From the IMG/VR virus record IMGVR_UViG_3300045988_077625, positions 1 to 64,000 of that record: a stretch of DNA of 64,000 nucleotides, one strand, 5' to 3'. Below are positions 21,337-51,485 of the stretch, piece by piece; the stretch's first letter is position 1; each line of letters begins with the position of its first letter. The notes beneath the pieces were generated by a model. That model ran no database searches. It was not told where the DNA came from and saw only the letters and a program-made list of their open reading frames with translations. This DNA comes from a virus. The position numbers were made by a program, and so were the translations under genes.

Positions 21337-21340
21337 TCTA

Positions 21341-22897: not shown

Positions 22898-23143
22898 TTA
22901 TCTAAACAACATGTTCTGCCATTGTTTTGACACAATTTCGATGTACTCTTTAACCGCATCGTTTACATCCACCATATTATTGTATTTTTCTATAAGATTG
23001 TTGTTAGACCATCTATAAACCCATTTGTACTTATTGGACATGAATACAATCGAGTTATTGTAGATTGTTATGTTTCCATTCAGTTTTTGTTGAACAGAGT
23101 CTAAGAATATCTTCAGGTATTTTCTATATTCCATATCGTTCAC
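22898..23143 (-). CDS. hypothetical protein
   Basis: 81-aa ORF. Confidence 0.35.
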   Translation of the reverse strand: MNDMEYRKYLKIFLDSVQQKLNGNITIYNNSIVFMSNKYKWVYRWSNNNLIEKYNNMVDVNDAVKEYIEIVSKQWQNMLFR

Positions 23144-24177
23144 CCGGCATATAAAGATTTATACTTACGAATATGTTTTACCAATTTTTTGATATCTCGC
23201 TTTGTCGTTGTATTAGAGAATGAGACTCGAATTACATATGGCGCATATTCTGATGGAATGTTACAAGCGGCTAGCACTCTGTAGTCTTTGACGTCTGCAC
23301 ACGCGCTATGTCCTACAGACACATAGATTTTTTTAGATGCTAAGTAGGATTGCAAAGAATCTGCGCTGATATCAAACAGCAAGATAGAATTGATGGCTTT
23401 TGTTTTCTCATGCTGAGAATCTACAACATATGAGGTTAATGAATTTTTATAAAGCTGCTTTTGCAAAAACCTGGACAAATCATCAAAATGCAATTCGTTT
23501 AAGTTGTCTACTGATCTACTCAACGCATTTGTTAATTGCTCAATTCCGTTTAAATCTTTTGTTCCACCCAAAGAAAATTCATATAGGCATTTGCTTAAAG
23601 CGTTGGACAACCAAACAAATCCAATTCCAGGATTAGCCCCAAATTTATGTCCAGATGCGAACACCATATCACAACAACTTGAAATATCCTCTGGAATTTT
23701 ATTGTGTCCAATAGCAGCTGTAAGATCGCAACAACAAAACGCGCCATATTCTTTACAAATATTTCCGATGGCTTCTACATCGTATATGCGCCCTGTAATG
23801 TTATTTGTTAACATCTGATAAACAAAGATTTTATCATACCAACTTTTTTCTTCCAATTTATCTAACTGAACACATAAATCTGATTCATTGTTAAATGTTG
23901 AATGAGACACGTTCACAATGGATTCGTGTTCAAAGCAACTAGCCAAATTTGTGTATCGCAAGAAGCGCATTCTATAGTTTAGTTGTTCCAACAACGTGGA
24001 AACATCATGACAAAATAAAAATTTTCCATCATGCAAATTCAATTTGTTGCGGATCGTATTTTCAAAATTTTGTAATGCTACTGACTCATTTTTAGCATAT
24101 TGTTGATTTGCATTCAGCATCCACTTGTTTTTTCTTTTAATTTCAGGACAAGTAGAAGCGTAATCCAAATACACCAT
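23140..24177 (-). CDS. NifS/IscS-like class V PLP enzyme (cysteine desulfurase paralog 1)
   Basis: MVYLDYAS N-terminus. PLP-lysine motif ASGHKFGANPGIGFVWL. Active-site Cys loop VGHSACAD..YRVLAACNI. Confidence 0.65.
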   Translation of the reverse strand: MVYLDYASTCPEIKRKNKWMLNANQQYAKNESVALQNFENTIRNKLNLHDGKFLFCHDVSTLLEQLNYRMRFLRYTNLASCFEHESIVNVSHSTFNNESDLCVQLDKLEEKSWYDKIFVYQMLTNNITGRIYDVEAIGNICKEYGAFCCCDLTAAIGHNKIPEDISSCCDMVFASGHKFGANPGIGFVWLSNALSKCLYEFSLGGTKDLNGIEQLTNALSRSVDNLNELHFDDLSRFLQKQLYKNSLTSYVVDSQHEKTKAINSILLFDISADSLQSYLASKKIYVSVGHSACADVKDYRVLAACNIPSEYAPYVIRVSFSNTTTKRDIKKLVKHIRKYKSLYAG

Positions 24178-27130: not shown

Positions 27131-29305
27131 TCACGATTCAGTTGATTTGTCAAGTAGCATTTCACATAATTCAGTATTTCTTTCCTTTTCCTCTTGTACT
27201 CTCAATCCCTCTTGAATAGCCGCCTCATCTCCAATCAATATTAGCCGCTCTTGAGCTCGTGATACCGCCGTGTAGCACAAATTGCGACTTAACATTCTTA
27301 CATGGCTTCTATCAATCACTACAATCACAGCCTTTGCTTGGCTACCTTGGCAGCTATGAATAGAAATTGCATATGCTAATAGTGTATTCTTGATATGAGA
27401 CTTATCAACTATACAATTACCGCAATCATATCGCACAATCATATATGGCTCTTTTTCATCTGGTACAATTTCCATTACTGTGCCAATATCGCCATTTGCT
27501 ACAAAAGCCGTATCATCATCAACAAGCGGCATAGCATATTCATTCTTTTTGTTAATGACCTTATCGCCAACTTTGAAATAGATAGGTACATTATTAACAA
27601 TATGCCCAACCGTGCTTAATTCATTTGGATTGAATTTGGCTTGAATCGCCCCATTGATAGCTAATGAGCCAATTTCGCCCTTATTAAATGGGGATAGAAT
27701 CAGCACATCATCCTTACTATATCCATCTGCTAAGAGCCGCGCATATTCTTGTTCAATTTGATTGATTACTAATGTATCAGTTTCAATGAACTTATAATCT
27801 GTGAAAGTATCTGTCAGATGGTCATTTACTCCATTTCGTACATCAGTAGCTATGGTGATAATGCCAGATGTGTTATATCTGAATACTTTAGTCAAGTTGC
27901 ATACAGGCACTATGCCACTATCAAGCATATCCTCAACAATATTACCACAAGCAATAGATGCAAGCTGAGATGGGTCAGCTATGAAAATGATTTTGGTATT
28001 ATCTGCTACCTTATCAAATAGCATTGATAGCAAATGGACGCTAACCATACCCATTTCATCAATTAGCACATAATCGCCCAGATTGCCCTCACGAATCAAG
28101 AACATATGAATAGTGCTTGCTTCGCGCCCTGTTGCTTCTCTTAGGCGTTTGCTAGCTATCCCTGTCGGGGATAAGAGGGTATAACTATAATCGTTAGCTT
28201 CTAACATTTCAATGATTGCCTTGGTCGTAGCCGATTTCCCCGATCCGGCGCTTCCCGTCAGCATCATAACGTCCTGCTTACAAGCCATCTCAAGAATCTG
28301 CGCCTGTTCATCAGTCAGTTCTAAGCCGTCTACGTTTGTAAACTTCTGCCAATCCATAGGATAATAATGTGGGTTGGCTATTTTTTTCTTGATGACATCA
28401 GCAATATGTTGTTCTGCGCTATATGTGGCTTGTAGAGCTGTATTTTGACTAGAGGTGTCATAGTGTACTTGCGCCGATTTTGTCACAACATCGAGGAGAT
28501 GATGGACACATTGAGGGGCTTTACGCTTGACCATATCAAATAGCTGTTTGGCTTGCATTCTTGTATTACCGTCCAACTCATTATGCTTTAGAGCATAAAT
28601 AGTAGCCGCCTCACATCGTTCATAGCTATCAATCCATTGACACGTCTTTTTGGTTATCGCCTTATCAGCTCTATCGAACGACCATTCAAGCAAGTTAATC
28701 ATAACAGCATATGGATTAGCATTTATATCCTTGCTAAATTCATATACATTCTTATATGTTGCGGCAATTTTGTTTATATCCTCATCATGCTCAATGCACC
28801 AAGAATATGTTTCGCCCATAAATTTAACACGCTTGTTGATTGTCTTGATTTTGTCAATATATCTTGGCAATAGCACATTACCTACGCCACGAATTTTTTT
28901 GTAGTCCAGCTTGTCGGATTCGCCATTCAGCACCATACTGACAAAATGAGGATATGCGGCATGACATGATTCGGCTTGCCCATTGGTCATTAGGCTGCGT
29001 AGCGTCTGTAATTCGGCTTTTTCTGTTAGATTGAATTTGCCATCTTTAGCTACAAATCCAGCGAATCCAATAAATTTATAGCTATATTTATACTTGTCGT
29101 CCTCACATGGCTCGATGATACAATCAATAGACTGCCCCATTTTCAAGTCGGCAATCCCAGTTCCTTTTAGGCTGATTGTGCCATATTGAGGATGCCGTTC
29201 TATTGAGTCATCCTTAGTGCGACATGATATAATTGAGAAATTGGATTCAGGATTATTGAATATCATGCGCATTGGGATTAATTTTACTGTTTGCATGGAA
29301 TACAC
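27131..29305 (-). CDS. RecD-like SF1 DNA helicase
   Basis: Walker A is LTGSAGSGKS and Walker B is VLIDEMGMV. C-terminal SIHSCQGSQ and YTAVSRA motifs. Confidence 0.75.
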   Translation of the reverse strand: MYSMQTVKLIPMRMIFNNPESNFSIISCRTKDDSIERHPQYGTISLKGTGIADLKMGQSIDCIIEPCEDDKYKYSYKFIGFAGFVAKDGKFNLTEKAELQTLRSLMTNGQAESCHAAYPHFVSMVLNGESDKLDYKKIRGVGNVLLPRYIDKIKTINKRVKFMGETYSWCIEHDEDINKIAATYKNVYEFSKDINANPYAVMINLLEWSFDRADKAITKKTCQWIDSYERCEAATIYALKHNELDGNTRMQAKQLFDMVKRKAPQCVHHLLDVVTKSAQVHYDTSSQNTALQATYSAEQHIADVIKKKIANPHYYPMDWQKFTNVDGLELTDEQAQILEMACKQDVMMLTGSAGSGKSATTKAIIEMLEANDYSYTLLSPTGIASKRLREATGREASTIHMFLIREGNLGDYVLIDEMGMVSVHLLSMLFDKVADNTKIIFIADPSQLASIACGNIVEDMLDSGIVPVCNLTKVFRYNTSGIITIATDVRNGVNDHLTDTFTDYKFIETDTLVINQIEQEYARLLADGYSKDDVLILSPFNKGEIGSLAINGAIQAKFNPNELSTVGHIVNNVPIYFKVGDKVINKKNEYAMPLVDDDTAFVANGDIGTVMEIVPDEKEPYMIVRYDCGNCIVDKSHIKNTLLAYAISIHSCQGSQAKAVIVVIDRSHVRMLSRNLCYTAVSRAQERLILIGDEAAIQEGLRVQEEKERNTELCEMLLDKSTES

Positions 29306-30009
29306 CTATACAATTTTTCTGTTTTATCGGTACGACTTGATTTATCCAGTGTGCACTTCAACTTGCCTTCCCAGATACATTCAAAGCCGTCCTCTGGCAT
29401 CCAATATTCACTAATCAGAACGATATTAGTCTTAGCCATTTTTTTACACCAAGCATAGAATTTATCATAGTCAAAATCGCTTGTTGCATATTTTGTTGTA
29501 TCGCGGTATGGAGGGTCACAATAAATGACCATATGATCCACATCCAATTTCCAGAAATCGCCACATACAAAAAATATTCCTTTTAACTTGGGGGCTTGTT
29601 TCTTGATATTTCTGATAGCCTCGTTAGTAATATCTCTTGGCGTTACGCCATCTGCTTTGAAGCCCCTTGGATAACCACCGAACCATTTTGCGCCGAACGT
29701 ACAGAACCCTACAAGCCCTACATACCAATCTGGATAATTGGATGGATTGGTTCTTACAGCATTATATTCTTCCTCTGTGATGGTATCAGGCAAATCATCT
29801 GTTGTCTCTGATACATGATTTAGTAATGCAATCAGATATTTATGAACATCGTTTCCAATCTTACATGGGCATTTGATTTTATCAATCATATTAGCACCGC
29901 CAACAAACGGCTCTAAATAGCCACGACAATTAGGCATATTATCAATATATGATTGGATAATAGGTGCAATTTGCTTACTCAAGCGGTTCTTGCTCCCAAC
30001 GTATTTCAT
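29284..30009 (-). CDS. dam: DNA N6-adenine methyltransferase (Dam family)
   Basis: N-terminus MKYVGSKNRL (D12 class) and catalytic motif YCDPPY. Confidence 0.75.
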   Translation of the reverse strand: MKYVGSKNRLSKQIAPIIQSYIDNMPNCRGYLEPFVGGANMIDKIKCPCKIGNDVHKYLIALLNHVSETTDDLPDTITEEEYNAVRTNPSNYPDWYVGLVGFCTFGAKWFGGYPRGFKADGVTPRDITNEAIRNIKKQAPKLKGIFFVCGDFWKLDVDHMVIYCDPPYRDTTKYATSDFDYDKFYAWCKKMAKTNIVLISEYWMPEDGFECIWEGKLKCTLDKSSRTDKTEKLYRCIPCKQ

Positions 30010-30273: not shown

Positions 30274-30462
30274 TTACATCTCCTCTTGCCCCAAATTTAT
30301 AAATTCGCAAACACTCATAATTATATCTTCATATTTATCAAATTCATTAGATTTTTTAACAAAATCTCTTGCTTCATACTCCATGAAAAATTTAGGAGTA
30401 AAAATCAATTTGTATCTATCTGTTCTCGTGTTTCTAACTTTAACAAACCAGTTATGTTTCAT
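30274..30462 (-). CDS. hypothetical protein
   Basis: 62-aa ORF downstream of the promoter at 30496-30524. Confidence 0.35.
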   Translation of the reverse strand: MKHNWFVKVRNTRTDRYKLIFTPKFFMEYEARDFVKKSNEFDKYEDIIMSVCEFINLGQEEM

Positions 30463-30495
30463 AATTAAAACAACCTCCTGTTCTTTGATAAATCA

Positions 30496-30524
30496 AGTAT
30501 ATCATAGTAACAAGAGGTTGTCAA
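30496..30524 (-). promoter_or_regulatory. sigma-A type promoter
   Basis: TTGACA-17 nt-TATACT. Confidence 0.6.
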
Positions 30525-30536
30525 GCAATATTTTAA

Positions 30537-30791
30537 TTATTTTTTAATCATTTTCTTTAATTCTGCAAATAGCTCTCTACCACAAATAGGACAAGTAGAA
30601 TTTATGTCAACTACATATTTTTCATCTACCATTAGACCGCAATTTGGGCATTTAATAGGTGCATATTTTAGGGGACGCTCAGTCCGTTTGCGACGATTTC
30701 TTTCTGCTCTGCTCAATTTCTTCTTTCTCCTTATATTTTGCTCTATATTCGTCCCGTCTGGCTTCATCACCATCATTCCACCATTTAACAT
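30537..30791 (-). CDS. basic zinc-ribbon protein
   Basis: CPNCG...CPICG preceded by an R/K-rich segment. The 5' part overlaps the upstream gene in another frame, so the true start is uncertain. Confidence 0.35.
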   Translation of the reverse strand: MLNGGMMVMKPDGTNIEQNIRRKKKLSRAERNRRKRTERPLKYAPIKCPNCGLMVDEKYVVDINSTCPICGRELFAELKKMIKK

Positions 30792-31119
30792 TGATATAAT
30801 CTAACACTTTAGCCATACCAAGCCCCTTAGCAGGGATCCACTTACCAGAATCATCATATTTACCTCCACGCATACAATAATCATAAAGTTGTGGATGGGT
30901 ATTAGCTAATGTTTGGAAACGATTTGGTTCTTTTTCAAGGTGACACCCAAATCCACAGAACACACAACCTGTTCTTTTGTAATTTGTGAAGTATAGCAAA
31001 CCGTTTGCTTCTTTTAGCTCTCCATATACAGATGCATATGGAAGATTATGTTTCTTGATATAATGAAGAATATCTTGCTCCGTCCAAAATGCGAGCGGCG
31101 TTGAAATTGGTTCTTTCAA
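30679..31119 (-). CDS. PAPS reductase-like protein, C-terminal part (in frame with 31153-31752 across one TAA)
   Basis: PLAFWTEQDILHYIKKHNLPYASVYG and GCVFCGFG are motifs typical of the PAPS reductase/DndC-like family. Confidence 0.6.
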   Translation of the reverse strand: MKEPISTPLAFWTEQDILHYIKKHNLPYASVYGELKEANGLLYFTNYKRTGCVFCGFGCHLEKEPNRFQTLANTHPQLYDYCMRGGKYDDSGKWIPAKGLGMAKVLDYINVKWWNDGDEARRDEYRAKYKEKEEIEQSRKKSSQTD

Positions 31120-31152
31120 ATTAAACGCATTACATCCTTGTTGTAGCCAATT

Positions 31153-31752
31153 TTATTCTCGTCTTTCAGATTCTACAGTCATTACAGCCGTCATCGGATG
31201 TAGTCCCGTTTTGTGATAATAATGCTTCAATGGTTCTTTCTTCATTTTATTGCAACAATTATCACCTATTGGAACGTCGCAATTACTTAAATATCTCCAT
31301 TTAAGAGGTAGCATTTTTGTTGTTGCTTTCTTTCCTGTACTTGTAATTCCAGTAAGTCTTAAATTTCTTGTTTTTATGTTTCTTTCAGGGGGATTTTGTA
31401 AGTCCCATATCATTCTTGAGCATTGTTTAGAAATAACTGGATAACCGAATTTCGTTACAACTTCACCAAATGTTAGTTTTGGCTTGACGATAGCAACGTT
31501 GTCAAACGATTTCACAAATGTTCTAATTTCAGGAAATTCAAGCCCAGTATCAGAATAAACAGCAATCACATCAGGATATACATTCCGCACTAAATCAAGC
31601 AAGACCGTACTGTCTTTGCCTCTACTAAAAGAAACTGCGACCTTTCCATCCCAATGTTCATACCATTCAATAATACGAGCCGTACTAATCTGAATCTTTT
31701 CTTCAAGAGATTTGGATTGTAGCTCTTTCAAATCTTCCTTTGTATGATTCAT
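31153..31752 (-). CDS. PAPS reductase-like PP-loop ATP pyrophosphatase, N-terminal part
   Basis: PP-loop is VAVSFSRGKDSTVLLDL. The ORF ends ..TVESERRE-TAA, and the family motif continues in the same frame (NWLQQGCNAF). Confidence 0.65.
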   Translation of the reverse strand: MNHTKEDLKELQSKSLEEKIQISTARIIEWYEHWDGKVAVSFSRGKDSTVLLDLVRNVYPDVIAVYSDTGLEFPEIRTFVKSFDNVAIVKPKLTFGEVVTKFGYPVISKQCSRMIWDLQNPPERNIKTRNLRLTGITSTGKKATTKMLPLKWRYLSNCDVPIGDNCCNKMKKEPLKHYYHKTGLHPMTAVMTVESERRE

Positions 31753-32843
31753 TTCACAAATTTCTCCTTATATTCAACGACCGCGTTCACAAATTCATCA
31801 ATGCCCTCACATGTTGTATTTTCTCCAAAAGACACTCTAACAACACGACTTGCTTCATCATTAGCTAAGCCACAAGCATTGAGCACTCTGAAATCATGTA
31901 GACTTGAACAGGTAGAACCGCCAATACCAATATAGATTTGCTTAGATGCTAGATATTGCTGTAAGCTGTCAGCGTTAATATCATCAAACATAATAGCGTT
32001 GATAGCAGACACGCTACGTGCTGGTTCATTTGCATTCGACTTATCTGGTTTCAACGCATTATTGACAACAGCACCGTGAATATCATTATCAGTGAATTTA
32101 TCAAGCATATATCGGTATAGTTCATATGCTCTTGCCTCATGCTCCTCTGCGTTCTTACAAGCATCTTCAGTAGCATCAACAATAGCCATCGCACCAACAA
32201 GATTAGGCGTACCATGCAGCTTGAAATCACCAAGACAATCATTGAGTTTATCAGATAACCACATAGCACCAATGCCGCCCTCAGTACCAAGCTTGTGTCC
32301 ACTCCAAATAGCACAGTCGCACCATTGGTCAATATTGGCTGGAATTGGAGCTTTGCCAATCATAGCGGTCATATCGCAAATATAGAATGAATGGAATCCA
32401 TGACAGATTGTGCCGATTTGCTCAATATGGAAAATTTCACCTGTGATATTATTGACCCCTTGCCAGATGACACATCCTCTATATCCTCTATATCCTCTAT
32501 TCTTAGTTAGAGCATCCTTAAGTTGAATTATATTGGCTACTCTTGTTACTAAGAATCGGTCGAACGAATCATGTTCATATGTCGAGCCAATAACATACTC
32601 TGTGAATCTGCGCTTACCATTGACTTCCCAATTCATCAAATTCTCAACCATCTGACTACTTGTGCCACCAAATACAACCTTGCCGCTCTTAGCACCAATA
32701 GCCGCCTTTACCCTATTTGCACAATCATCAAGCAATTTCTGTTCCTTATAAGCATAATTGGCATTAGAGTTTAGAAACGAGCCGTATTTACTACATGGAT
32801 ATTTAGTGAACGGATTAGTTGCAGCATAATCTAAATAAATCAA
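31749..32843 (-). CDS. NifS/IscS-like class V PLP enzyme (cysteine desulfurase paralog 2)
   Basis: MIYLDYAATNP N-terminus. PLP-lysine motif WSGHKLGTEGGIGAMWL. Cys loop GIGGSTCSS..FRVLNACGL. Its stop overlaps the PP-loop gene start (ATGA). Confidence 0.65.
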   Translation of the reverse strand: MIYLDYAATNPFTKYPCSKYGSFLNSNANYAYKEQKLLDDCANRVKAAIGAKSGKVVFGGTSSQMVENLMNWEVNGKRRFTEYVIGSTYEHDSFDRFLVTRVANIIQLKDALTKNRGYRGYRGCVIWQGVNNITGEIFHIEQIGTICHGFHSFYICDMTAMIGKAPIPANIDQWCDCAIWSGHKLGTEGGIGAMWLSDKLNDCLGDFKLHGTPNLVGAMAIVDATEDACKNAEEHEARAYELYRYMLDKFTDNDIHGAVVNNALKPDKSNANEPARSVSAINAIMFDDINADSLQQYLASKQIYIGIGGSTCSSLHDFRVLNACGLANDEASRVVRVSFGENTTCEGIDEFVNAVVEYKEKFVK

Positions 32844-34453
32844 TTAAAATATTCACTCCAATCAATTTCATTTTCATTTGGTTTATCAACAATCTCATAT
32901 CGTTCAATGATTGCTTGTGGCTTAATCTGCCCATTATATTCGTTCAACCCAAGCGATACTACTACCTCTATGGATTTGCCCTGTGCTGATTCAAATTGGT
33001 TTGCTTCTTCATTACTAACAAAGAATTTAATGAATTCAATGCCATCCTGAATTAGCTTAACAGTAGTTGAGCGATTACGATATACATAGATTTGAGGAGA
33101 AGGCAGGGTTAGATGGAATAACGGACTTGGCACACCTTGACCCCATAGGATATTATTTTCTACACACACATTTGCAAGATTGCGTGTAATATTATTAGGC
33201 GCGATCTGAGCCGCCACCTCAATATCTGGCTCTACGTCCAAATCAAGTCCATCTAAGAATCGCGCAAATCGCTTGAGATTGGACTTTTTTACTGTGATAC
33301 CAGCTGCCGCATCATGTCCTTGACATTTAGCTAATCCTGATTTATTGATAATTTCAAGCAAATCAATAGGACTACGCATCGAGCCAGACCATGTTGTACT
33401 GTTTAGTTCTCTCAGCAGGAATGTGGGCTTATTATATTTCCCACAAAATTTATTGGCTACAAGCCCTAAATAGGATTTATTCTCAGGTTCACCAAAGCCG
33501 ATAATAACCTTATGAGACGTATCAAGCCCATCTGATAGCTTATCTACAACCTTCTTGACTTGATAATCCTGTTTGGACTTTACGGCTTTCATAGCCTTTA
33601 CGGCGGCTTCTGGCTCAATCTTACCAATCAGCGCATCAAAGAATAACCGCTTAGTAGACTGGTCATCACTACGAGCAAGCGCATTGGCAAGAGGCGCAAT
33701 ACCAAATGCCACACCCTCTGGATTAACGCCACGATTGCAACAATGCTCTAAGCAGTATTTGATGAATGGATTAGTTGGATTAGTTAATCCGTCATATACA
33801 TACTTACGGTTCTCAAGTGAACGTAAGCTGCAAATATCAGAGATTAGGCTAACAGCTACTAAATCCTTGAAAGATTGAGTCGAGCCAAGCGCACAAGCAA
33901 ATTTTTCTACAACACCTGTACCACTAATGTCTTTATTGATATTCGGCGCATTGTCGGCTCGATACGGGTTGACTACAACGGCGTGTTGATTCTTTCGCTC
34001 AATGATATGGTGGTCAAGAACAAGACAAGTGCATTTATGCTGTTCCAGCTCTAAACAAGCGTCATTTTCATTAGAGCTTGAATCAGGCAAGATAAGAAAA
34101 TCAATATGCGCATCAATAATATCTTGCATCAGGTCTTGTATACCATGCTGCTTTCCAGAATGGAATAGTACTACTGGTTCTTTCTTTCCAAATTCTTTAC
34201 ATAGCAAATATGCGATTGCCGCTGATAAGTTGCCATCTCCGTCAGAATCGGCAACGATGCCAATTTGAATATCGTCATTAGCATACTTGAACATATCAAC
34301 AGCCACATCCATATTCTTGTACATATCAGGCGATTGATATTCAATCTTATCTGGATTTAGATATGAGTCAATATCATCTATACCACAAGCGGATAAATAT
34401 TCCCTTAAAAATGTGGCTTCATTAAGGGAATTAAGTAGTGGATGAATTTTAAT
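32840..34453 (-). CDS. DHH-family phosphoesterase (RecJ-like), proposed ATT start
   Basis: DHH motifs are VADSDGDG and LVLDHH. DHHA1 motif is CQGHDAAAGI. The conserved-looking N-terminus (LREYLSACGIDDIDSYLNP) lies upstream of the first ATG (34324). AAGGAGG at 34464-34470 precedes ATT 34453. Confidence 0.6.
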   Translation of the reverse strand: MKIHPLLNSLNEATFLREYLSACGIDDIDSYLNPDKIEYQSPDMYKNMDVAVDMFKYANDDIQIGIVADSDGDGNLSAAIAYLLCKEFGKKEPVVLFHSGKQHGIQDLMQDIIDAHIDFLILPDSSSNENDACLELEQHKCTCLVLDHHIIERKNQHAVVVNPYRADNAPNINKDISGTGVVEKFACALGSTQSFKDLVAVSLISDICSLRSLENRKYVYDGLTNPTNPFIKYCLEHCCNRGVNPEGVAFGIAPLANALARSDDQSTKRLFFDALIGKIEPEAAVKAMKAVKSKQDYQVKKVVDKLSDGLDTSHKVIIGFGEPENKSYLGLVANKFCGKYNKPTFLLRELNSTTWSGSMRSPIDLLEIINKSGLAKCQGHDAAAGITVKKSNLKRFARFLDGLDLDVEPDIEVAAQIAPNNITRNLANVCVENNILWGQGVPSPLFHLTLPSPQIYVYRNRSTTVKLIQDGIEFIKFFVSNEEANQFESAQGKSIEVVVSLGLNEYNGQIKPQAIIERYEIVDKPNENEIDWSEYFN

Positions 34454-34485
34454 ATAAAATCAACCTCCTTATTATTGATATAGTG

Positions 34486-34514
34486 ATTATATCATAAAGA
34501 GGTTGATTTGTCAA
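34486..34514 (-). promoter_or_regulatory. sigma-A type promoter
   Basis: TTGACA-17 nt-TATAAT with TGa extended -10. Confidence 0.7.
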
Positions 34515-34525
34515 GTATTAAATTA

Positions 34526-34798
34526 TCAAATTTCTTCAACTAGCACATATTCATTATCCCAAGTACTAATATAATACAGACCACCATGGTCAAGCCCAAG
34601 AAAATCAGTTTCGTTTTCTGTAAGCATCCTGACGTCCTCTGCGTCTCGATTGAGAAATTCTACCATAGAATCAATATCATCAATTCGAGCATTCTTGAAC
34701 GATTCAACATCCTTATATTCATCTCTGAGATGAGGATCGTCCTTAAACAACATAAAAGCCTCCTCTACTTCCATGACATTGAGCGTGATTTTCTTCAT
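34526..34798 (-). CDS. hypothetical acidic protein
   Basis: GGAGG RBS then ATG 34798. Confidence 0.4.
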   Translation of the reverse strand: MKKITLNVMEVEEAFMLFKDDPHLRDEYKDVESFKNARIDDIDSMVEFLNRDAEDVRMLTENETDFLGLDHGGLYYISTWDNEYVLVEEI

Positions 34799-34841
34799 AT
34801 TATAATCCTCCAAATATATATTAGCCGGTTGGCTTAAATAT

Positions 34842-34870
34842 AGAATAGCACAAAAACATTGATTTGTCAA
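34842..34870 (-). promoter_or_regulatory. sigma-A type promoter
   Basis: TTGACA-17 nt-TATTCT. Confidence 0.5.
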
Positions 34871-34880
34871 GTATTATTTT

Positions 34881-35072
34881 TTACCTAAAAATTGTGCCAT
34901 CCCAAGGCTTATATTCATAGCCGCAACGAGGACAATAATTAGCCTCAACTAGCTCATAGTGATAACCACATCTAGCACAAACACTATACCATGAGCCATT
35001 TGTATTATATCTGTGTTTCCATTTTAGCCTTGTTTCATATAGTGGCTTATATTTACCATATTTTCTCTGCAT
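34881..35072 (-). CDS. zinc-ribbon protein
   Basis: Has CARCG...CPRCG. 63 aa. Confidence 0.35.
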   Translation of the reverse strand: MQRKYGKYKPLYETRLKWKHRYNTNGSWYSVCARCGYHYELVEANYCPRCGYEYKPWDGTIFR

Positions 35073-35198: not shown

Positions 35199-35675
35199 TT
35201 ATCTCTCTTTCATAAATGCCATCCAATGTGTTTTCTGCAATTTACCAGATTTATGTCCGTACATTGGCTCGTATCCAATAACTCGAATTATTTTTGATAC
35301 AGGAATGTCCGTTTCGTTCCATTTGAAAATTAGCGTTCCATTTGGCTTTAAGACCCTCATACATTCAGAGAATCCCTCGTGTAGCGTCTTTTCCCAATCC
35401 TCTTTAAGTACACCATATTTCTTTGCCATCCATGAATTTTCTCCAAGTGTAATCATGTGTGGAGGGTCAAATACAACGTGCCAAAAAGTATTATCATCAA
35501 ATGGTAAATTAGTAAAATCAGTAATAATGTCTGGTTTGATAATTAGTTTGCGCCCATCACATAGATTAGCATTTAACTCTCTACAATCACAAAATTCAAC
35601 ATCTGGATTATTTTTATCAAACCAGAACATCTTACTTCCGCAACATGGGTCTAATACCCTTTTTTCTGTTCTCAT
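35199..35675 (-). CDS. SAM-dependent DNA methyltransferase (DPPH motif)
   Basis: SAM-binding region VLDPCCGSKMFWF and catalytic-type motif VVFDPPHM. Confidence 0.6.
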   Translation of the reverse strand: MRTEKRVLDPCCGSKMFWFDKNNPDVEFCDCRELNANLCDGRKLIIKPDIITDFTNLPFDDNTFWHVVFDPPHMITLGENSWMAKKYGVLKEDWEKTLHEGFSECMRVLKPNGTLIFKWNETDIPVSKIIRVIGYEPMYGHKSGKLQKTHWMAFMKER

Positions 35676-35727: not shown

Positions 35728-36462
35728 TCATATTGCATTTGCAGAAGCAGCAAATTCACCATAATATTTTAATTCCGCTTTAACTCTTGCATTTATTGCA
35801 TCTTGCAAATTCTTATAACATCCAAGATATATATTCTTTTTGTTGACGAAAATATATGCCTCATATCTGTCTTTATAAGCCCTATACGTTATTCCTATCT
35901 TGCCACATTTGTTTGTTATTGAATTGTGACGATTCATACAATTTTGAGATGGCGTACAAATTCTCAAATTGTTTCTTCTATTATCTAGCTTGTCGCCATT
36001 TATATGGTCTACGAATTTATCTTGTGGCGCATTCATCAAAAATCTATGTAACGATATTCTTTTATTTTTATCAATGCTATGCGTCGCTATATATCCGTCC
36101 GACGTTACATTCCAATAAAGATTTTTAACCGTATCATAATCTTGTATGTCAAAAATAAATCGTGTTCCATTTTCACAATATCCAACACAAACATCATCTT
36201 GAATATCAAACTGATTGTATTTTTTATTGATTTCAACAAATTTATCAATTTTATAACATCCACACGATGTTGTTTTCCCGTTTTTAAGATATGGTAGTCT
36301 TACTGTTATCTCTTTGCCACAGTCACATTTACATCTAACCAATCTTGCACGGCTCTTTCCTGATGGGGATTCATACCAACCGTCATCCCCAATAACAACC
36401 AGCCTACCAAACCGTTCCCCTATTGGAGTTGGATTATAGCATACGCCTTTTGCTTTTGACAT
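35728..36462 (-). CDS. free-standing HNH homing endonuclease with AP2 DNA-binding domain
   Basis: HNH_3-type region HRFLMNAPQDKFVDHINGDKLDNRRNNLRICTPSQN. AP2-like region YRAYKDRYEAYIFVNKKNIYLGCYKNLQDAINAR. Confidence 0.7.
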   Translation of the reverse strand: MSKAKGVCYNPTPIGERFGRLVVIGDDGWYESPSGKSRARLVRCKCDCGKEITVRLPYLKNGKTTSCGCYKIDKFVEINKKYNQFDIQDDVCVGYCENGTRFIFDIQDYDTVKNLYWNVTSDGYIATHSIDKNKRISLHRFLMNAPQDKFVDHINGDKLDNRRNNLRICTPSQNCMNRHNSITNKCGKIGITYRAYKDRYEAYIFVNKKNIYLGCYKNLQDAINARVKAELKYYGEFAASANAI

Positions 36463-36573
36463 GATTTTATTATCCTTTCCTACCAAAAGATTTTTATATA
36501 GAGTAAAGCGCAGAGAGTAGGCCCTACGCTTCTAAAAGGAATAAGTTGTACACCTTACCCTACCTCTATCCTA

Positions 36574-39665: not shown

Positions 39666-40291
39666 GAAGAAATTATCTCATATTCTAACATCCACTTATC
39701 AATTTCTTCTTGGCTCATAGCCACATCTGTTCGCTTACAATCAACCACACTAAGACCGCTAGGATGCGTTATAACCCGATTTTTCTCTATGCTATATCCT
39801 GCATCATATTCAAGATGCAATCGGCATATACAGCCTTCACAGCCGTCAGGACGTTTGATATTAAACACCCTAGGCGAATCGCCGCATATATTCAAGAATC
39901 TGCTTGAATCAATCCATTGTCCATCCATTTCTATATTCATGTTATCAGGCGCATTATCTTCAACTATGCGGCAATATTGTACATTATAATACAATGATTT
40001 TTTCCATTCATTGATATTGCCTGATACCAATAGCCTAGTAGGCATATCAGATTTTTTCATTGTATAATAATGTTTATTTTTGAGGTATATATAGCTGTCT
40101 ATTCGTGGGTGGATATATTGCGCCATATTAAGCCATGATTTGATTTGCGACTCATTCCATTTGCGGCTTAATGTTTGGCTCATGGTGAGACATTGATTGT
40201 TGGCGATGACGCTGAATTTGATTTTCATATGAGTCTGATATATGTCAATTCGCAGCTCTTGCAGTTGAGCTACACATAGAAATCTATTCAT
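39662..40291 (-). CDS. hypothetical protein (downstream partner of radical SAM gene)
   Basis: 209-aa ORF with a 4-nt overlap with the radical SAM gene. Confidence 0.4.
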   Translation of the reverse strand: MNRFLCVAQLQELRIDIYQTHMKIKFSVIANNQCLTMSQTLSRKWNESQIKSWLNMAQYIHPRIDSYIYLKNKHYYTMKKSDMPTRLLVSGNINEWKKSLYYNVQYCRIVEDNAPDNMNIEMDGQWIDSSRFLNICGDSPRVFNIKRPDGCEGCICRLHLEYDAGYSIEKNRVITHPSGLSVVDCKRTDVAMSQEEIDKWMLEYEIISS

Positions 40292-41535
40292 TTTTTAGAC
40301 CATATACCAAAAGTCGCCATATCTTTTGGGATTAAATGAAAATAATCACTGTCTCCATTTTTTGAGACGAACTCATCATAATATTTCCACGAAGCACCTC
40401 TTGCTGTTTCGCCATATTCTGCAAGATACCCTGTTATATTCTTTTTATACTTTTTATAGCCATCAGCCTTCATTCCTCTACATTTACAAAATTCTTCAAA
40501 TGTAAATGTTTTGAAAAAAGATGGTTGATTGCACCATGCCGCAATAGCATCATATAGCCCTCTGTATGGAGATTTTTTATAATTTTCATGTCTCATGACA
40601 TATGGAAAAGCAGAATATTTAGATAGAATGAAAATGCGTTCAAATAGGTCAAATATATCATTGAGCCAAAAATCATCATCATACCGATTTTCTCTATCAA
40701 AGCCACAAAAGCAATAAAATTTCATTTGTTTTTTCCAATTAGGGCAAGTTGAATATATTAAATTTAGTTTAGATTTAATTAAGTCTTTATCCTCAATATT
40801 ATCAAAAGCGAAGATAAGATCACTATCATATTTCCACGTTTGAATTTCTTCTATTTTTTCTTTGGTGAGCAATCTTTCATCGAGCCCTTGTTTGAATTGA
40901 AACCGTCTACCAGTTGATTTTACAGAATTTATAATATTACGCCAGTCAGGACAAGCAAAGAAATTATCGTCAAGAAAACATAATTTAGGACGTGATATGT
41001 CTATAAATTCATCTAATGCAGAATGCGCACAGCATTTATTGTATATCTTATTAACACAAAACTGACATTGACGGAAACAGCCTCTCGTCAAGAACCCAAT
41101 AGAGTAATCGGTGTAATAAACAAATTCTTTTTGCTTTACACCATTAGCAATACAATTTGCAACCCATTCATCGTACAAATGATAATCCGGGATACAATGC
41201 TCTATATTATTAGGAAGTTTTGGTGCTTTCTCGTAGAAAAATCCAGTTCCGCCATATTCTATTTTTGGGTTTTTTAAGAATGGATTGTTGGCATAATATT
41301 CTGCACAATTTGACTCAGTTTTTTCTATTGATTTGTCCTCCATAGGAATATCTGTCTTGACAAAAACTTTAGAAATAAACACTTTGTCAAATCGTTCAAT
41401 ATCTTCATATGATAAACACAACCTAACATTGTCTCTTTGCGATTTATACCATGACGATATTTTCATGCAAGCAAGATTCGGGAATCTATGTTTAGTTTGC
41501 CCGATAATTTCAGCGTCAATAATACCAACGTTCAA
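40288..41535 (-). CDS. radical SAM enzyme
   Basis: CxxxCxxC motif is RGCFRQCQFC (C153/C157/C160; nt 41056-41079). The N-terminal ~60 aa resemble the Rossmann-like or B12-like cap of class B radical SAM proteins. TTG start overlaps the upstream stop. Confidence 0.65.
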   Translation of the reverse strand: MNVGIIDAEIIGQTKHRFPNLACMKISSWYKSQRDNVRLCLSYEDIERFDKVFISKVFVKTDIPMEDKSIEKTESNCAEYYANNPFLKNPKIEYGGTGFFYEKAPKLPNNIEHCIPDYHLYDEWVANCIANGVKQKEFVYYTDYSIGFLTRGCFRQCQFCVNKIYNKCCAHSALDEFIDISRPKLCFLDDNFFACPDWRNIINSVKSTGRRFQFKQGLDERLLTKEKIEEIQTWKYDSDLIFAFDNIEDKDLIKSKLNLIYSTCPNWKKQMKFYCFCGFDRENRYDDDFWLNDIFDLFERIFILSKYSAFPYVMRHENYKKSPYRGLYDAIAAWCNQPSFFKTFTFEEFCKCRGMKADGYKKYKKNITGYLAEYGETARGASWKYYDEFVSKNGDSDYFHLIPKDMATFGIWSKK

Positions 41536-42463: not shown

Positions 42464-43132
42464 TTACTCAGCTTTTTTAGCTGTAGTAGTAGATTTAGCC
42501 TTTGGCGTACTTGCCTTCTTTAGCCCATAATATTCTCTGATTGTATCATCAACCATCTTTAGATCGTTATCAATCTCAAGAGAATCAAACATCCCCATTG
42601 GCGACTTGCATGGATTCGAGCCGTCAGACTGTGTAATAAAATAATGCTTGCGCTCATCTGCTTTACATAGCAGGACAATACTAAACAGCCCCTCTACTGT
42701 GAGCTGCTGGTCTAGCATCTTACCAAGAGTCTTAGCCTTTACCTTACCGTTTTCATCAGTATCAATATGCTGCATGATATATACAATCGTATCCGGACTT
42801 GTATCTTCCTGAACCGTGCGCAACATTTCCTCGTAGTTCTTAGCCATCGTGGTAAACTTGCCATATCCGACTTCATTTACCTTGTCAAAACTCTCAAATG
42901 CCATAAGATACTGAGCGTCATCTACGACCCAACTTAGCTTTTTGCCACTACATACTGCGCCTTTGATACTGGTATATGTGGCCTTGTTCATACTCTGTAA
43001 CTTATTTACATTTCTGAATGGTAATGGCTTTGATGCCACATTTAGGATGCCAACATCCTCTTGCTTGAAATTTCTAAGTGACGCTGATTTGCCAGAGCCA
43101 CTTTCACCTAAAATAAGAACTGCTACCCCAAT
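42464..43132 (-). CDS. RecA-superfamily ATPase (Sak4-like), proposed ATT start
   Basis: Walker A (LILGESGSGKS) lies upstream of the first GTG/ATG (43039). GGAGG at 43140-43144 is followed by 7 nt and ATT 43132, which overlaps the HNH stop codon (TAATT). Confidence 0.6.
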   Translation of the reverse strand: MGVAVLILGESGSGKSASLRNFKQEDVGILNVASKPLPFRNVNKLQSMNKATYTSIKGAVCSGKKLSWVVDDAQYLMAFESFDKVNEVGYGKFTTMAKNYEEMLRTVQEDTSPDTIVYIMQHIDTDENGKVKAKTLGKMLDQQLTVEGLFSIVLLCKADERKHYFITQSDGSNPCKSPMGMFDSLEIDNDLKMVDDTIREYYGLKKASTPKAKSTTTAKKAE

Positions 43133-43701
43133 TAAATTTCCTCCTTATATTTCCATCTAAATCCATTAGATGTTTTTCTTTTATTTTTACAACATTCACA
43201 AATATGATTTGATTTATATCCAAGTGTTTCTATGGCTTCTTTAATGCTTTCCCACTCTCTTATAATTTCTCCGTCCAAATTCATTTGAATAACTGGTATT
43301 TTTATAGCGGGATTATTTTCTTTGAATTTTATGCTCAATTCATCATAGAACCATCTTTTACGTTCAGCTCTTTTCTTATGTCCTTGATTATAAGATAAAT
43401 TATATCCTTGTGTACACCATTCTAGGTTGTTTACATAATTGTTTAATTTGTTTTCGTCTTTATGGTTAACAATCGGAAGGTTTTCTGGATTTGATAAAAA
43501 TGCTTCTGCTACAAGACGATGAACCAATAATCTTTTACCAACTTTGTTCTTAAAAAGCTGAACAGTTGCATATCTATTGTTACATATATTCCACTTTAAT
43601 TTTTTCTTATATCGAAACAAACTCCGTACATTACCAAAATTACTTACTTCATACAATCCTTCATATCCAACCACATCTTTCCAAATTTCTTTTTCTTCCA
43701 T
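43132..43701 (-). CDS. free-standing HNH homing endonuclease (NUMOD4 + HNH_3)
   Basis: NUMOD4 motif is WKDVVGYEGLYEVSNFGNVRS. HNH_3 region is VHRLVAEAFL..VNHKDENKLNNYVNNLEW. Confidence 0.75.
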   Translation of the reverse strand: MEEKEIWKDVVGYEGLYEVSNFGNVRSLFRYKKKLKWNICNNRYATVQLFKNKVGKRLLVHRLVAEAFLSNPENLPIVNHKDENKLNNYVNNLEWCTQGYNLSYNQGHKKRAERKRWFYDELSIKFKENNPAIKIPVIQMNLDGEIIREWESIKEAIETLGYKSNHICECCKNKRKTSNGFRWKYKEEI

Positions 43702-51456: not shown

Positions 51457-51485
51457 AATATTCAGCTCCTTTACTTGATGGTTTA

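Follow-up and report, generated by a model that had tools for sequence, protein, structure and literature searches.

Does a phage locus in which one promoter serves a DHH phosphoesterase, a cysteine desulfurase and a PP-loop protein encode a system for the thiolation of nucleic acids, as an earlier note on this DNA had suggested? The stretch of 64,000 nucleotides that we analysed (the window) appears to derive from an uncultured 80-100 kb gut Bacillota phage, and its interval 30537-34514 reads as one transcription unit of the replication module, in which the promoter is followed by RecJ, by Des1 and the PP-loop gene as an inserted accessory cassette, and by a Zn-ribbon gene (Table 1). We consider it probable that a RecJ/Zn-ribbon unit here carries a sulfur-transfer cassette whose PP-loop step has been lost. 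The single promoter claimed at 34486-34514 was found on the minus strand with the full TTGACA-17-TATAAT consensus; it is the best promoter match within 30300-35000, and this stretch shares 92-97% nucleotide identity with L003 and L007. A second promoter-like site probably marks the end of the unit, and no terminator-like site was seen between the two. The overlapping stop and start codons were also as described, the RecJ stop and Des1 start sharing TTGA and the Des1 stop and PP-loop start sharing ATGA. The count of three genes holds for the RecJ-like and class-V aminotransferase reading frames but not for the PP-loop gene, which is in two pieces because of an in-frame TAA.

Table 1. Predicted features of the sulfur cassette, its surroundings and the second desulfurase locus in the window.
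Feature	Position	Strand	Basis or remark
Sigma-70-type promoter, TTGACA-17-TG-TATAAT	34486..34514	-	12/12 consensus, extended -10 TG; motif only
RecJ-like 5'-3' ssDNA exonuclease, 494 aa, DHH + DHHA1 + RecJ OB	32840..34324	-	Pfam, PHROG, TIGR00644
Des1, short group-I (NifS/IscS-like) PLP cysteine desulfurase, 364 aa, TTG start	31749..32843	-	intact
PP-loop/Fe-S-motif 'PAPS reductase family' pseudogene, phrog_424 type, 357 codons	30679..31752	-	in-frame TAA
AGA codon, Arg44 for invariant first Gly of SGGxDS	31621..31623	-	sequence, homologue alignment
In-frame TAA, Gln200 (CAA) in intact allele	31153..31155	-	comparison with P0271
Basic Zn-ribbon protein, 59 aa, probable TTG start, CxxC...CxxC	30537..30716	-	relatives' starts; weak Zn-ribbon Pfam matches
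Second promoter-like site, 11/12 + TG	30496..30524	-	just 3' of Zn-ribbon stop
Des2, paralogous short cysteine desulfurase, 345 aa	23140..24177	-	downstream of ribonucleotide reductase

The product of the first gene exceeds the gathering cut-off for each of the Pfam domains DHH, DHHA1 and RecJ_OB, matches phrog_2484 ('RecJ-like ssDNA exonuclease') over residues 2-481 (E 4e-100) and TIGR00644 recJ (E 1e-62), and contains the motifs DSDGDG, LILPD, DHH and GHDAAAG; its dN/dS is 0.10-0.17. The earlier description of a DHH/DHHA1 RecJ-like protein therefore stands with an OB domain added, but the hydrolysis of pAp and the membership of a sulfur operon that were proposed for it do not. A pAp phosphatase was rejected in view of the RecJ OB domain and the matches to RecJ models. 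Relatives that lack both Des1 and the PP-loop gene still carry RecJ, and in other lineages the desulfurase/PP-loop pair lies kilobases away from it. Since RecJ occurs whether or not the cassette does, the DHH protein is not a third member of the sulfur system; it is a backbone gene of the replication module. At the other end of the unit, the basic zinc-ribbon ORF is present as reported, but with another extent: its start is most likely the TTG at 30716, which gives the length seen in relatives (59-60 aa, beginning with (M/V)SRAERN), and its first 38 nt are shared, in a different frame, with the 3' end of the PP-loop gene. The slot between RecJ and the Zn-ribbon gene may be empty or hold Des only, Des and the PP-loop gene, or the PP-loop gene only (L054), and the junctions of all these arrangements (RecJ-Zn, RecJ-Des-Zn, RecJ-Des-PAPS-Zn and RecJ-PAPS-Zn) are precise start/stop overlaps; the Zn-ribbon start directly overlaps the RecJ stop (TTGA) in L043, L046 and L047, and the Des stop (ATGA) in L007 and L011. 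Together with RecJ, the Zn-ribbon gene makes up conserved backbone outside the cassette.

Des1 scores 67 bits against Aminotran_5 (gathering cut-off 21.5), and matches NifS/IscS models with E about 1e-19 and DndA/SspA with E 4e-24. Alignment with IscS confirmed the claim of a NifS/IscS-like enzyme with both the PLP lysine and the Cys loop, as SGHK and GGSTC align with K206 and C328. The residues H91, D157, K184, C312 and R336, equivalent to H104, D180, K206, C328 and R354 of IscS, are invariant in 80/80 representatives at <=50% identity, and the only checked IscS catalytic residue that is missing is Gln183, which is Ala throughout the Des family. Des1 is intact and, with a dN/dS of 0.13-0.20, under purifying selection. 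It differs from IscS by the loss of the C-terminal 25-40 residues, which in IscS help to bind IscU. A second desulfurase, overlooked by the earlier reading, lies at 23140-24177: Des2 shares 35% identity with Des1 (BLASTP E 7e-67), matches Aminotran_5 with E 1.7e-24, retains SGHK, GHSAC and IRVSF, and falls with Des1 into one PHROG, phrog_12787. The six closest relatives with Des2 all lack Des1, and L134 and L136 carry Des1 with no room for Des2; the number of Des genes per genome is usually one, and the sites are alternative.

The PP-loop gene belongs to the PAPS-reductase family, as had been claimed (PF01507, 67.9 bits; phrog_424, E 7e-46), but the SRGKDS that was taken for its signature is a mutated SGGKDS: the motif S[FN]SGG[KVI]DS occurs in 116/120 listed homologues and SRG in none of the 120, and the first Gly does not vary in any of the 59 homologues that were aligned; CC and CxxC are likewise invariant in the alignment. 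Called homologues are uninterrupted and 347-368 aa long, and an intact allele of 358 aa (P0271) is 97% identical to the gene of the window; for the shorter homologues P0376, P0384 and P0365, truncation of the allele or the end of a contig may be the reason. An AF2 model (pLDDT 91) has as its top PDB match the APS reductase 2goy, followed by CysH, CysD and FAD synthase and then by TtuA and LarE. The fold of the intact protein is that of the PAPS/APS reductases, and its PP-loop (SGGKDS) is of the true ATP-pyrophosphatase kind. The CC...CxxC motif resembles the [4Fe-4S] site of APS reductase and may mark a putative Fe-S cluster. Bit scores were 16 for DndC, 33 for SspD, 45 for BrxP, 44 for CysH and 59 for PRK08557, with all these matches confined to the N-terminal PP-loop region; the protein fails the DndC, SspD and BrxP models, and we saw no preferential similarity to DNA-phosphorothioation enzymes.

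In the window, the TAA splits this gene into 199 and 146 codons at a position that phage homologues span in a single tblastn piece. The changes specific to the window are G44R, Q200stop, Y235H and D308A; the column of the stop codon is variable, whereas G44R, Y235H and D308A fall at conserved columns, D308A replacing a near-invariant Asp of the family. TAA and G44R are not sequencing errors of the window, because both occur in the independent assembly L009 (SRR31227590) and G44R also in L010 (ERR14021766), whose contig ends ahead of the stop position. Against the intact allele we obtained a dS of 0.36 and a dN of 0.014, which points to long constraint followed by recent inactivation. TAA is the commonest true stop among the long ORFs of the window (27/48), and no suppressor tRNA was found in the window. 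Judged by these lesions, the gene is a recently inactivated pseudogene, a remnant, and it is very unlikely that this copy performs the role that the pair has in relatives. Degraded alleles are also present in L034 and L038.

Among the 80-100 kb gut Bacillota phages, the PP-loop gene is almost always directly 3' of a desulfurase gene. Wherever both genes lay in the fetched flanks, Des came first and the PP-loop gene followed on that strand; the two nearly always overlap by 4 nt, the exceptions being L030 and L052, with a few nt between them, and L035, with a single large gap of about 900 nt. The pair recurs in at least four flanking contexts (the clade of the window, DnaB...Des-PAPS-primase, beta-CASP-Dam-x-Des-PAPS, and others), usually with overlapping stop and start codons, and also with Des proteins just 30-36% identical to Des1 and where the two genes have diverged to very different degrees (in L030, Des is 34% and the PP-loop protein 88% identical to that of the window); this recurrence supports functional coupling in relatives and makes a good comparative case that the pair is functional there. 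Part of the adjacency could stem from a single cassette being inherited, not from selection acting repeatedly. The PP-loop gene has a mosaic history and has been swapped independently of Des. More than half of the surveyed Des-bearing lineages lack it, and among loci of broad-family PP-loop homologues, a desulfurase lies nearby in just 3/80 from viruses and 2/80 from bacteria. Since most Des occur without the PP-loop gene and most PP-loop homologues without a desulfurase, the coupling is facultative, and in most genomes the PP-loop enzyme evidently does without a desulfurase of its own. Of the coupling claimed in the earlier note, the translational coupling here stands, and the pair recurs in relatives, but a functional pair in the window is very unlikely, the PP-loop gene being inactivated.

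How, then, should the locus be read? A working trio that thiolates phage DNA or tRNAs, the DHH protein removing pAp, would fit the single promoter with its overlapping codons, the intact desulfurase and the fact that phosphorothioation and tRNA thiolation are known to centre on such a pairing of desulfurase and PP-loop enzyme (PMC12914056, PMC12707154); however, the nonsense codon and the Gly-to-Arg change in the invariant PP-loop, together with the identity of the DHH protein as a RecJ that persists where the cassette is absent and stands apart from the pair elsewhere, make it scarcely credible, and for the window the sequence already largely refutes it in its literal form. The interrupted gene might still work by readthrough of the TAA or as two halves (199 aa with the PP-loop and 146 aa Cys-rich), which are in frame and 11 codons apart, with a TTG 3' of the stop, very few further substitutions, and an allele that has been kept in two or more phage backgrounds. 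We regard this as highly improbable: G44R destroys the ATP-binding glycine whatever the stop does, D308A and Y235H add to the damage at conserved columns, the TTG lacks a good ribosome-binding site (AAGGA is about 15 nt upstream), TAA is the main stop of this genome, no suppressor tRNA is present in the window, and the listed homologues, 116/120 with SGGxDS, are nearly all single polypeptides of about 320-370 aa.

The desulfurases might instead only feed cluster assembly for Fe-S proteins of the infection, among them the PP-loop protein itself and a radical-SAM protein (40288-41535), with no thiolation of nucleic acids. The retention of Des, usually one per genome, whether the PP-loop gene accompanies it or not, the CxxxCxxC of the radical-SAM protein, the CC...CxxC motif and the loading of DndC's cluster by DndA, as described by You et al. 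2007 (cited in PMC12914056), agree with this; but the radical-SAM gene is missing from the Des loci of relatives, scaffold genes (IscU, NifU, SufU or TusA-like) are not conserved beside Des, the IscS C-terminus is lacking, and the place of the PP-loop gene directly 3' of any Des within the fetched flanks (L035 excepted) is left unexplained, so we hold it to be unlikely, though worth keeping in view. That the genes are assimilatory auxiliary metabolic genes, a genuine PAPS/APS reductase that yields sulfite and a desulfurase tuning the cysteine and sulfur metabolism of the host, is very unlikely. PF01507 and the best structural matches speak for it, and phage homologues have been labelled as PAPS reductase-type AMGs (PMC7785012; bioRxiv 10.64898/2026.02.18.706556), a role that the latter itself calls uncertain; yet intact phage alleles have a canonical PP-loop, whereas that of CysH is degenerate (SSFGIQA), the C-terminal catalytic motif ECG[LI]H is missing, NCBIfam scores for CysH and APS reductase are far under cut-off (e.g., 44 vs 165), and around them lie replication genes and no further genes of sulfate assimilation. 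Independent 'moron' cassettes in a shared recombination hot spot, adjacent by inheritance or accident, would account for all four combinations at the RecJ/Zn-ribbon slot, for the mosaic exchange of the PP-loop gene, for the degraded alleles and for the rarity of pairing in the wider family, but we think the absence of any functional link decidedly unlikely, because the same-strand order with its 4-nt overlap recurs, also in the DnaB/primase interval and after beta-CASP/Dam, and holds for very divergent Des.

Under the sulfur-transfer cassette that we favour, Des1 would take sulfur from L-cysteine and hold it as a persulfide on Cys312. In relatives, Des may hand this sulfur to the PP-loop enzyme, where it could load the cluster, or replace an ATP-activated (adenylylated) oxygen of a putative nucleotide or nucleic-acid substrate, or both; in the window this step is lost, and Des1 and Des2 can now serve only as general sulfur mobilisers. 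The earlier statement that the pair corresponds to neither the Dnd nor the Ssp system was borne out by the low model scores. Near the pair we saw neither a DndE/SspB partner nor an NTPase of the DndD, SspC or BrxC type, and such an NTPase is treated as required for phosphorothioation (PMC12914056). The intact pair of relatives is a hint that the "PAPS reductases" so widespread in phages are sulfur-transfer enzymes, and the proposed passage of sulfur from a desulfurase to a PP-loop enzyme would follow the logic of DndA-DndC, SspA-SspD, NifZ-ThiI and YrvO-MnmA.

The phages related to the window are represented by contigs of 80-100 kb from human and animal gut metagenomes, and among cultured relatives a Clostridioides element (49.5%) comes closest by DnaE, with Bacillus siphophages at 42%. 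The site between the stop codon of the RecJ-like gene and the start of the zinc-ribbon gene (the slot) occurs in five states, with junctions exactly at the overlapping start and stop codons: empty (loci L042-L047 of the relatives), with a desulfurase gene of the Des1 family (Des) alone (L007, L011, L019/L026), with Des followed by the PP-loop gene of the PAPS-reductase family (L003, L013, L015-L017, L039), with the PP-loop gene without Des (L054), and with Des followed by a dead PP-loop gene (the window and L009). The five states indicate that the RecJ-like and zinc-ribbon genes form the backbone, and that the two cassette genes, Des and PP-loop, are optional insertions in it. A 14-nt repeat (ATATAAGGAGAAA) near both cassette gene ends was considered as the deletion junction and rejected, because the true junctions lie at the ATGA/TTGA start-stop overlaps.

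In every locus whose fetched flanks include both genes, the PP-loop gene follows Des in the same orientation, usually with a 4-nt overlap; the exception to direct adjacency is L035, with a gap of 900 nt. The pair is also found outside the slot, between DnaB and primase genes (L030, L034, L038) or after the beta-CASP/Dam genes (L048), and all three PP-loop homologues (55-78% identity) that were picked solely by the length of their contigs have a desulfurase immediately upstream. A further point for the pairing is that the divergence of the two genes is uncoupled, as L030 (Des 34%, PP-loop 88% identical to the window) and L003 (85% and 62%) show. Against it, the PP-loop gene is missing in the majority of the Des lineages, L054 has it without Des, and several of its alleles (the window, L034 and L038) are degraded. 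In the wider PP-loop family (40-58% identity), which typically sits beside terminase or portal genes, a desulfurase is nearby in only 3 of 80 viral and 2 of 80 bacterial-genome loci. The survey of the pairing counts contigs rather than independent events and reaches 5-10 kb to either side. In the relatives the two genes form a facultative but recurrent module. Of the trio of DHH, desulfurase and PP-loop genes, which the earlier note had proposed as an operon possibly for nucleic-acid thiolation, the Des/PP-loop pair recurs in the relatives; RecJ is no fixed third member, and both partners of the pair are optional at the slot. A fusion suggested by the label 'aminotransferase V' on the PP-loop homologue of Clostridium phage Clo-PEP-1 was rejected as annotation only; the protein is an ordinary 326-aa PAPS-reductase homologue between terminase genes.

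The PP-loop gene of the window is a mosaic, in which 220 nt at the 5' end and 300 nt at the 3' end are similar to the L003 allele (83-89% identity) and the middle (31529-30980) derives from another allele (compared with L003, L030 and L039). The window and L009 share an identical Des/PP-loop cassette with no synonymous differences, at a dS of 0.29 for RecJ; together with the mosaicism this points to recent recombinational exchange of the cassette. HNH-type insertions split Des in several lineages, and likewise RecJ, helicase and reductase genes: HNH/NUMOD endonuclease genes and insertions of ~0.7-1 kb interrupt RecJ (L007, L014, L017, L020), Des (L021, L028, L037, L050), the helicase (L042-L045) and the ribonucleotide reductase (L044-L047). 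These interruptions of replication genes in relatives represent traffic of mobile elements of the intron or homing type. The window carries two free-standing HNH genes, and a tyrosine recombinase/integrase in a phage with its own DnaE, DnaB, primase and ribonucleotide reductase.

All genes of the unit lie on the minus strand of the window (see table). RecJ and Des1 are joined by a 4-nt overlap (TTGA), as are Des1 and the PP-loop gene (ATGA); given these overlaps and the promoter motif, the proposal of a single transcription unit holds as far as can be read from the DNA.

Features of the window, with position, strand and remarks
Feature	Position	Strand	Remarks
Sigma-70-type promoter	34514..34486	-	TTGACA, 17 nt, TG-TATAAT; 12/12 matches; motif only
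DHH (RecJ-like) ORF, 494 aa	32840-34324	-	follows promoter
Des1 ORF, 364 aa	31749-32843	-	TTG start; after RecJ-like ORF
PP-loop gene (PAPS-reductase-family frame)	31752 to 30679	-	after Des1
Small Cys-rich basic ORF (zinc-ribbon)	ends 30537	-	last in unit
Second promoter-like site	30524..30496	-	11/12 matches; starts just past zinc-ribbon stop codon
Des2, desulfurase paralog, 345 aa	23140-24177	-	shares family and motifs with Des1 (35% identity); downstream of ribonucleotide reductase
Radical SAM protein, 415 aa	40288-41535	-	PHROG 9298 'radical SAM domain protein', E 5e-43; CxxxCxxC = CFRQCQFC
tRNA genes Leu(CAA), unusual Ile(TAT)	53582-53665 and 54528-54603	-	no suppressor tRNA
DNA methyltransferase genes (Dam-like MethyltransfD12; PHROG 954 type)	29284-30009 and 35199-35675	-	flank unit
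Free-standing HNH genes	35728-36486, 43132-43701
Tyrosine recombinase/integrase	50617-51495	-
DUF1599 'nucleotide modification associated domain 1'	62309-62848	-	nucleotide metabolism or modification
dCMP-deaminase-like	61601-62200	-	nucleotide metabolism
ThyX-like short protein	21341-21868	-	weak TIGR02170 match, C-terminal part only
Putative dUTPase ORF	20908-21387	-	read from terminal GGFGSTG motif

In the window an in-frame TAA (31153-31155) divides the PP-loop frame into 199 and 146 codons. Full-length phage homologues (36-46% identity; tblastn against phage records) span this position in one piece, so that we read the frame as one gene with a nonsense codon. The intact allele P0271 (358 aa, 185 member sequences, 97% identical to that of the window) has SGGKDS and a Gln at the position of the TAA, and the window differs from it by G44R, Q200stop, Y235H and D308A. 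Gly44 is invariant in 59 of 59 homologues, the Asp308 column holds Asp in 52 of the 59 and never Ala, and the Tyr235 column never His. The 'SRGKDS' taken earlier as a PP-loop signature is a mutated SGGKDS: S[FN]SGG[KVI]DS occurs in 116 of 120 homologues and SRG in none, and the intact relatives read SGGKDS or SGGVDS. A sequencing error was ruled out as the source of the TAA and Arg44 by the same lesions in independent assemblies (TAA and G44R in L009, G44R in L010); recoding of the stop codon or a suppressor tRNA was ruled out as well, because TAA is the main genuine stop codon of the window and no suppressor tRNA was found there. Compared with the intact allele, dS is 0.36 and dN only 0.014; until recently, the PP-loop gene was strongly constrained. 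We conclude that the PP-loop gene of the window is a recently inactivated pseudogene; a working thiolation set, as suggested for this phage, is largely refuted here, its PP-loop gene being inactivated (G44R, Q200stop, D308A). Degraded alleles were also seen elsewhere, with an N-terminal deletion in L034 and a frameshift plus a change of CC to CW in L038, and the homologue P0376 may be a truncated allele of 208 aa. Loss of the PP-loop gene seems to be recurrent in this phage group.

The desulfurase, by contrast with the dead PP-loop gene beside it, is predicted to be functional. Des1 has a class-V aminotransferase fold, and among named families it matches NifS, IscS, DndA and SspA best, though far under the curated cut-offs (NifS 71 bits, cut-off 531; IscS 67, cut-off 643; DndA 45, cut-off 480). 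A search of 1.84 billion representatives placed it in a distinct family of short proteins (335-365 aa; ~100 clusters at 50% identity, E 1e-98 to 1e-20), with canonical desulfurases next at ~1e-13. When 80 family members were aligned with E. coli IscS, the equivalents of IscS His104, Asp180, Lys206, Cys328 and Arg354 were invariant; the IscS sequence used agrees with the 1p3w alignment. The cofactor site of Des1 comprises K184 (the PLP lysine, IscS K206), H91, D157, S181 and H183 (IscS Ser203/His205), and the position of IscS Q183 is Ala across the family. C312 (IscS C328) and R336 (IscS R354) are invariant in 80 of 80 representatives and in a 71-sequence alignment, the active-site Cys being 2 residues off in the pairwise HMMER alignment and in register in the multiple alignment. 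The alignment stops near IscS residue 377, Des1 (364 aa versus 404) missing the C-terminal 25-40 residues of IscS. With a dN/dS against relatives of 0.13-0.20, Des1 is, judged by its conserved residues, a bona fide, intact cysteine-desulfurase-type enzyme. A search of representative bacterial genomes with Des1 yielded no close relative, and megablast of the unit region against 50,697 phage records no match; in these phage records tblastn with Des1 found just nine matches of ~25% identity, to unannotated records, which are uninformative. Two alignments, A1 and A2 (the latter against genomes), were too divergent for seeding locus searches.

A second desulfurase, Des2, makes the window unusual, since one desulfurase per genome, at alternative sites, is the rule in this phage group. 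Des1 was missing from the six closest Des2-bearing relatives, and in the Des1-bearing L134 and L136 the next gene lies only ~500 nt from the reductase, so that they have no Des2. No conserved third partner beside Des (IscU, TusA or another sulfur carrier) emerged when ORFs within 3 kb were clustered over 36 loci, and a 'zinc-ribbon family' that seemed to link different Des contexts was in part an artefact of out-of-frame overlap with the 3' end of the PP-loop gene. The radical SAM protein had no Pfam match, and its gene was absent from all fetched loci of relatives; the window desulfurases may have it as an Fe-S client, but it is not co-conserved with them. The nucleotide-metabolism and modification genes listed in the table may reflect base-level DNA modification apart from the Des/PP-loop finding.

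The RecJ-like protein exceeds the Pfam cut-offs for DHH (34.5 bits, cut-off 28.1), DHHA1 (30.4, cut-off 25.9) and RecJ_OB (29.9, cut-off 27), and its translation carries the motifs DSDGDG, LILPD, LDHH and GHDAAAG. The RecJ OB fold separates RecJ from the NrnA-type pAp/oligoribonuclease DHH enzymes. Over its full length the protein matches phrog_2484 'RecJ-like ssDNA exonuclease' (E 4e-100), and its match to TIGR00644 recJ (E 1e-62, 211.8 bits) does not reach the equivalog cut-off of 396.9. It shares domains and catalytic motifs with bacterial RecJ but is shorter (494 aa) and belongs to a divergent, phage-specific RecJ-like clade (phrog_2484), not to the bacterial equivalog. Nearby are genes for a RecD2/Dda-like helicase, a Dam-type methyltransferase, a second methyltransferase, an HNH endonuclease, a DnaG-type primase and the DnaB helicase, and further away in the window a DnaE-type polymerase, a beta-CASP nuclease, SSB, Sak4 and ribonucleotide reductase; the RecJ-like gene is one of replication and recombination. 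The DHH gene is therefore a bystander rather than the system member it was taken for, as its RecJ_OB and phrog_2484 matches and the loci with RecJ and zinc-ribbon genes without a cassette show. The zinc-ribbon gene (59 aa, basic, probable start TTG 30716 as in relatives) is likewise a bystander, adjoining RecJ in the cassette-free loci. The two methyltransferase genes that flank the unit are joined in some relatives by others, the extra sets differing among relatives (e.g. L052), and this variation suggests strong host restriction pressure. The earlier observation is partly confirmed and its interpretation partly supported: the link between desulfurase and PP-loop gene is real in the relatives, whereas in the window one partner is a pseudogene, and the DHH and zinc-ribbon genes are bystanders.

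Fold and model comparisons of the PP-loop enzyme used the intact allele P0271, whose AlphaFold2 model has a pLDDT of 91. The best PDB match found by Foldseek with this model was APS reductase 2goy (E 8e-8), followed by CysH, CysD and FAD synthase and later by TtuA and LarE; the top matches (2goy, 6vpu, 1sur, 7lhr) had E-values of 1e-7 to 1e-6 and a target-normalised TM of ~0.6, whereas TtuA ranked 28 or lower with a query-normalised TM of ~0.3. The gene product scores 67.9 bits against PF01507 (PAPS_reduct; cut-off 22.5), and a PDB search by sequence alone, with a PP-loop profile, gave matches restricted to the N-terminal 60-70 residues of CysH and GMP synthase. CC(166-167) and CxxC(263-266) are invariant in the homologues, with a spacing that we take to recall the [4Fe-4S] site of APS reductase, and TIGR02055 aligns the CC region. 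Scores of P0271 were 59 bits for PRK08557, 45 for BrxP, 44 for CysH, 33 for SspD and 16 for DndC, with matches confined to the N-terminal PP-loop region (residues 14-57 only for PADLOC DndC, 25-80 only for BrxP); TIGR03183 was not among the matches at E<=1, and TIGR00434 (43.6 bits, cut-off 165), TIGR02055 (28, cut-off 235) and TtcA (20.8, cut-off 272) remained below their cut-offs. These sub-family scores and N-terminal-only matches place the protein in no phosphorothioation family. The C-terminal catalytic motif ECG[LI]H was found neither in P0271 nor in the window sequence, and Pfam detected no THUMP, rhodanese or other tRNA/RNA-binding domain in the protein. An NTPase of the DndD/SspC/BrxC type is treated as required for phosphorothioate synthesis (PMC12914056); no such P-loop NTPase and no DndE/SspB partner was found in the window or among the called genes of the relatives' loci. 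The view that the set matches neither Dnd nor Ssp is borne out by these scores and by the missing partners.

The best fold matches, taken by themselves, would favour PAPS reduction, and phage PAPS reductases have been handled as sulfur-assimilation auxiliary metabolic genes (AMGs) without experiments (PMC7785012), their role still being called uncertain in a 2026 preprint (10.64898/2026.02.18.706556). Translational coupling to a dedicated desulfurase, a true ATP-pyrophosphatase loop and an APS-reductase-like Cys motif, seen in one group of gut phages, lead us to argue instead that the family probably transfers sulfur to an ATP-activated substrate. In the relatives, a persulfide on Des would be handed to the PP-loop enzyme, and the sulfur passed on might build the cluster of that enzyme or take the place of an oxygen, activated by adenylylation, in a nucleotide or nucleic acid as substrate, a hand-over whose logic would be that of DndA-DndC, SspA-SspD, NifZ-ThiI and YrvO-MnmA. 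Among the characterised enzymes with this fold, CysD and FAD synthase adenylylate an oxygen of sulfate or phosphate, and the PP-loop enzymes of phosphorothioation are DndC, SspD and BrxP, so that backbone or nucleotide chemistry would be the nearest precedent for the putative target. In the window phage this putative pathway is broken, with Des1 and Des2 serving general sulfur mobilisation only, and modification is not to be expected there because the PP-loop gene is dead.

A bolder reading of sulfur transfer, which we consider rather improbable, would make the intact pair a minimal phage sulfur-insertion system, the members of PHROG 424 nucleic-acid thiolation enzymes, and the window a natural knock-out. 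If it were true, phage DNA (as backbone phosphorothioate or thio-base), dNTPs or tRNA would be thiolated, no partners of the DndD/E, SspB/C or BrxC/Z/L type would be needed, and the PHROG 424 'PAPS reductases', now seen as sulfur-assimilation AMGs, would normally borrow a host desulfurase. The slot would then offer a natural series (no cassette, Des, Des with PP-loop gene, PP-loop gene alone, Des with dead PP-loop gene). As an allelic series at one genomic site, the slot is in any case a comparison set for thiolated DNA/RNA in gut phages, and Des with an intact PP-loop gene is a directly testable two-gene construct. For the biology of the window phage itself the finding matters little; it matters more for what it may reveal about the function of a very common phage gene family, 'PAPS reductases' being among the viral AMGs reported most often. 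No description of a phage pair of desulfurase and PAPS reductase was found in the literature searched, and phage copies go unmentioned in comparative studies of Dnd and BREX systems.

The pair resembles DndA-DndC, SspA-SspD and the desulfurase-BrxP pair of BREX type 4 in that a NifS-like desulfurase gene adjoins a PAPS-reductase-family gene, that the SGGxDS loop is intact (among the phages, in intact relatives only) beside conserved Cys residues that could ligate an Fe-S cluster, and that many genomes can do without the desulfurase or replace it, as IscS can replace DndA (PMC12914056, PMC12707154). It differs from them in a PP-loop protein of 358 aa (model lengths 481 for DndC and 779 for BrxP) that fits the DndC, SspD and BrxP models over ~50 N-terminal residues at most, in having no DndD/SspC/BrxC ATPase, DndE/SspB or restriction partner nearby, and in being phage-borne within a replication module, with a PP-loop pseudogene in the window. 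With CysH, APS reductase and CysD the phage enzyme shares its best fold matches (2goy, 6vpu, 1sur, 7lhr, 1zun), PF01507 and a CC...CxxC arrangement like that of the APS reductase cluster site; it differs by keeping the canonical ATP-pyrophosphatase loop (SSFGIQA in CysH), by ~130 additional residues including a highly conserved C-terminal region, by having no ECG[LI]H tail and by scores far under the family cut-offs. The phage and prophage 'PAPS reductases' of PHROG 424 are related to it (phrog_424 E 7e-46; proteins of Ruminococcus and Clostridium phages are 36-46% identical to it), but at large they stand alone by terminase or portal genes, whereas in the gut-phage group the gene directly follows a desulfurase within the replication module. 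In the Bacillota a short dedicated desulfurase is reportedly encoded beside the PP-loop thiolase that it serves, as Rajakovich in 2012 and Black and Dos Santos in 2015 are said to have described. The phage pair shares this arrangement with NifZ-ThiI (tRNA s4U8) and YrvO-MnmA (s2U34) of Bacillus subtilis; a likeness to the tRNA thiolases TtcA/TtuA lies in TtuA and LarE being among the structural matches of P0271 and in the tRNA genes of the window phage, whereas the phage PP-loop domain, unlike those of ThiI, MnmA and TtcA, belongs to the PAPS_reduct family. The theme of a dedicated desulfurase with a PP-loop sulfur-transfer enzyme is known, and its phage-borne variant is new.
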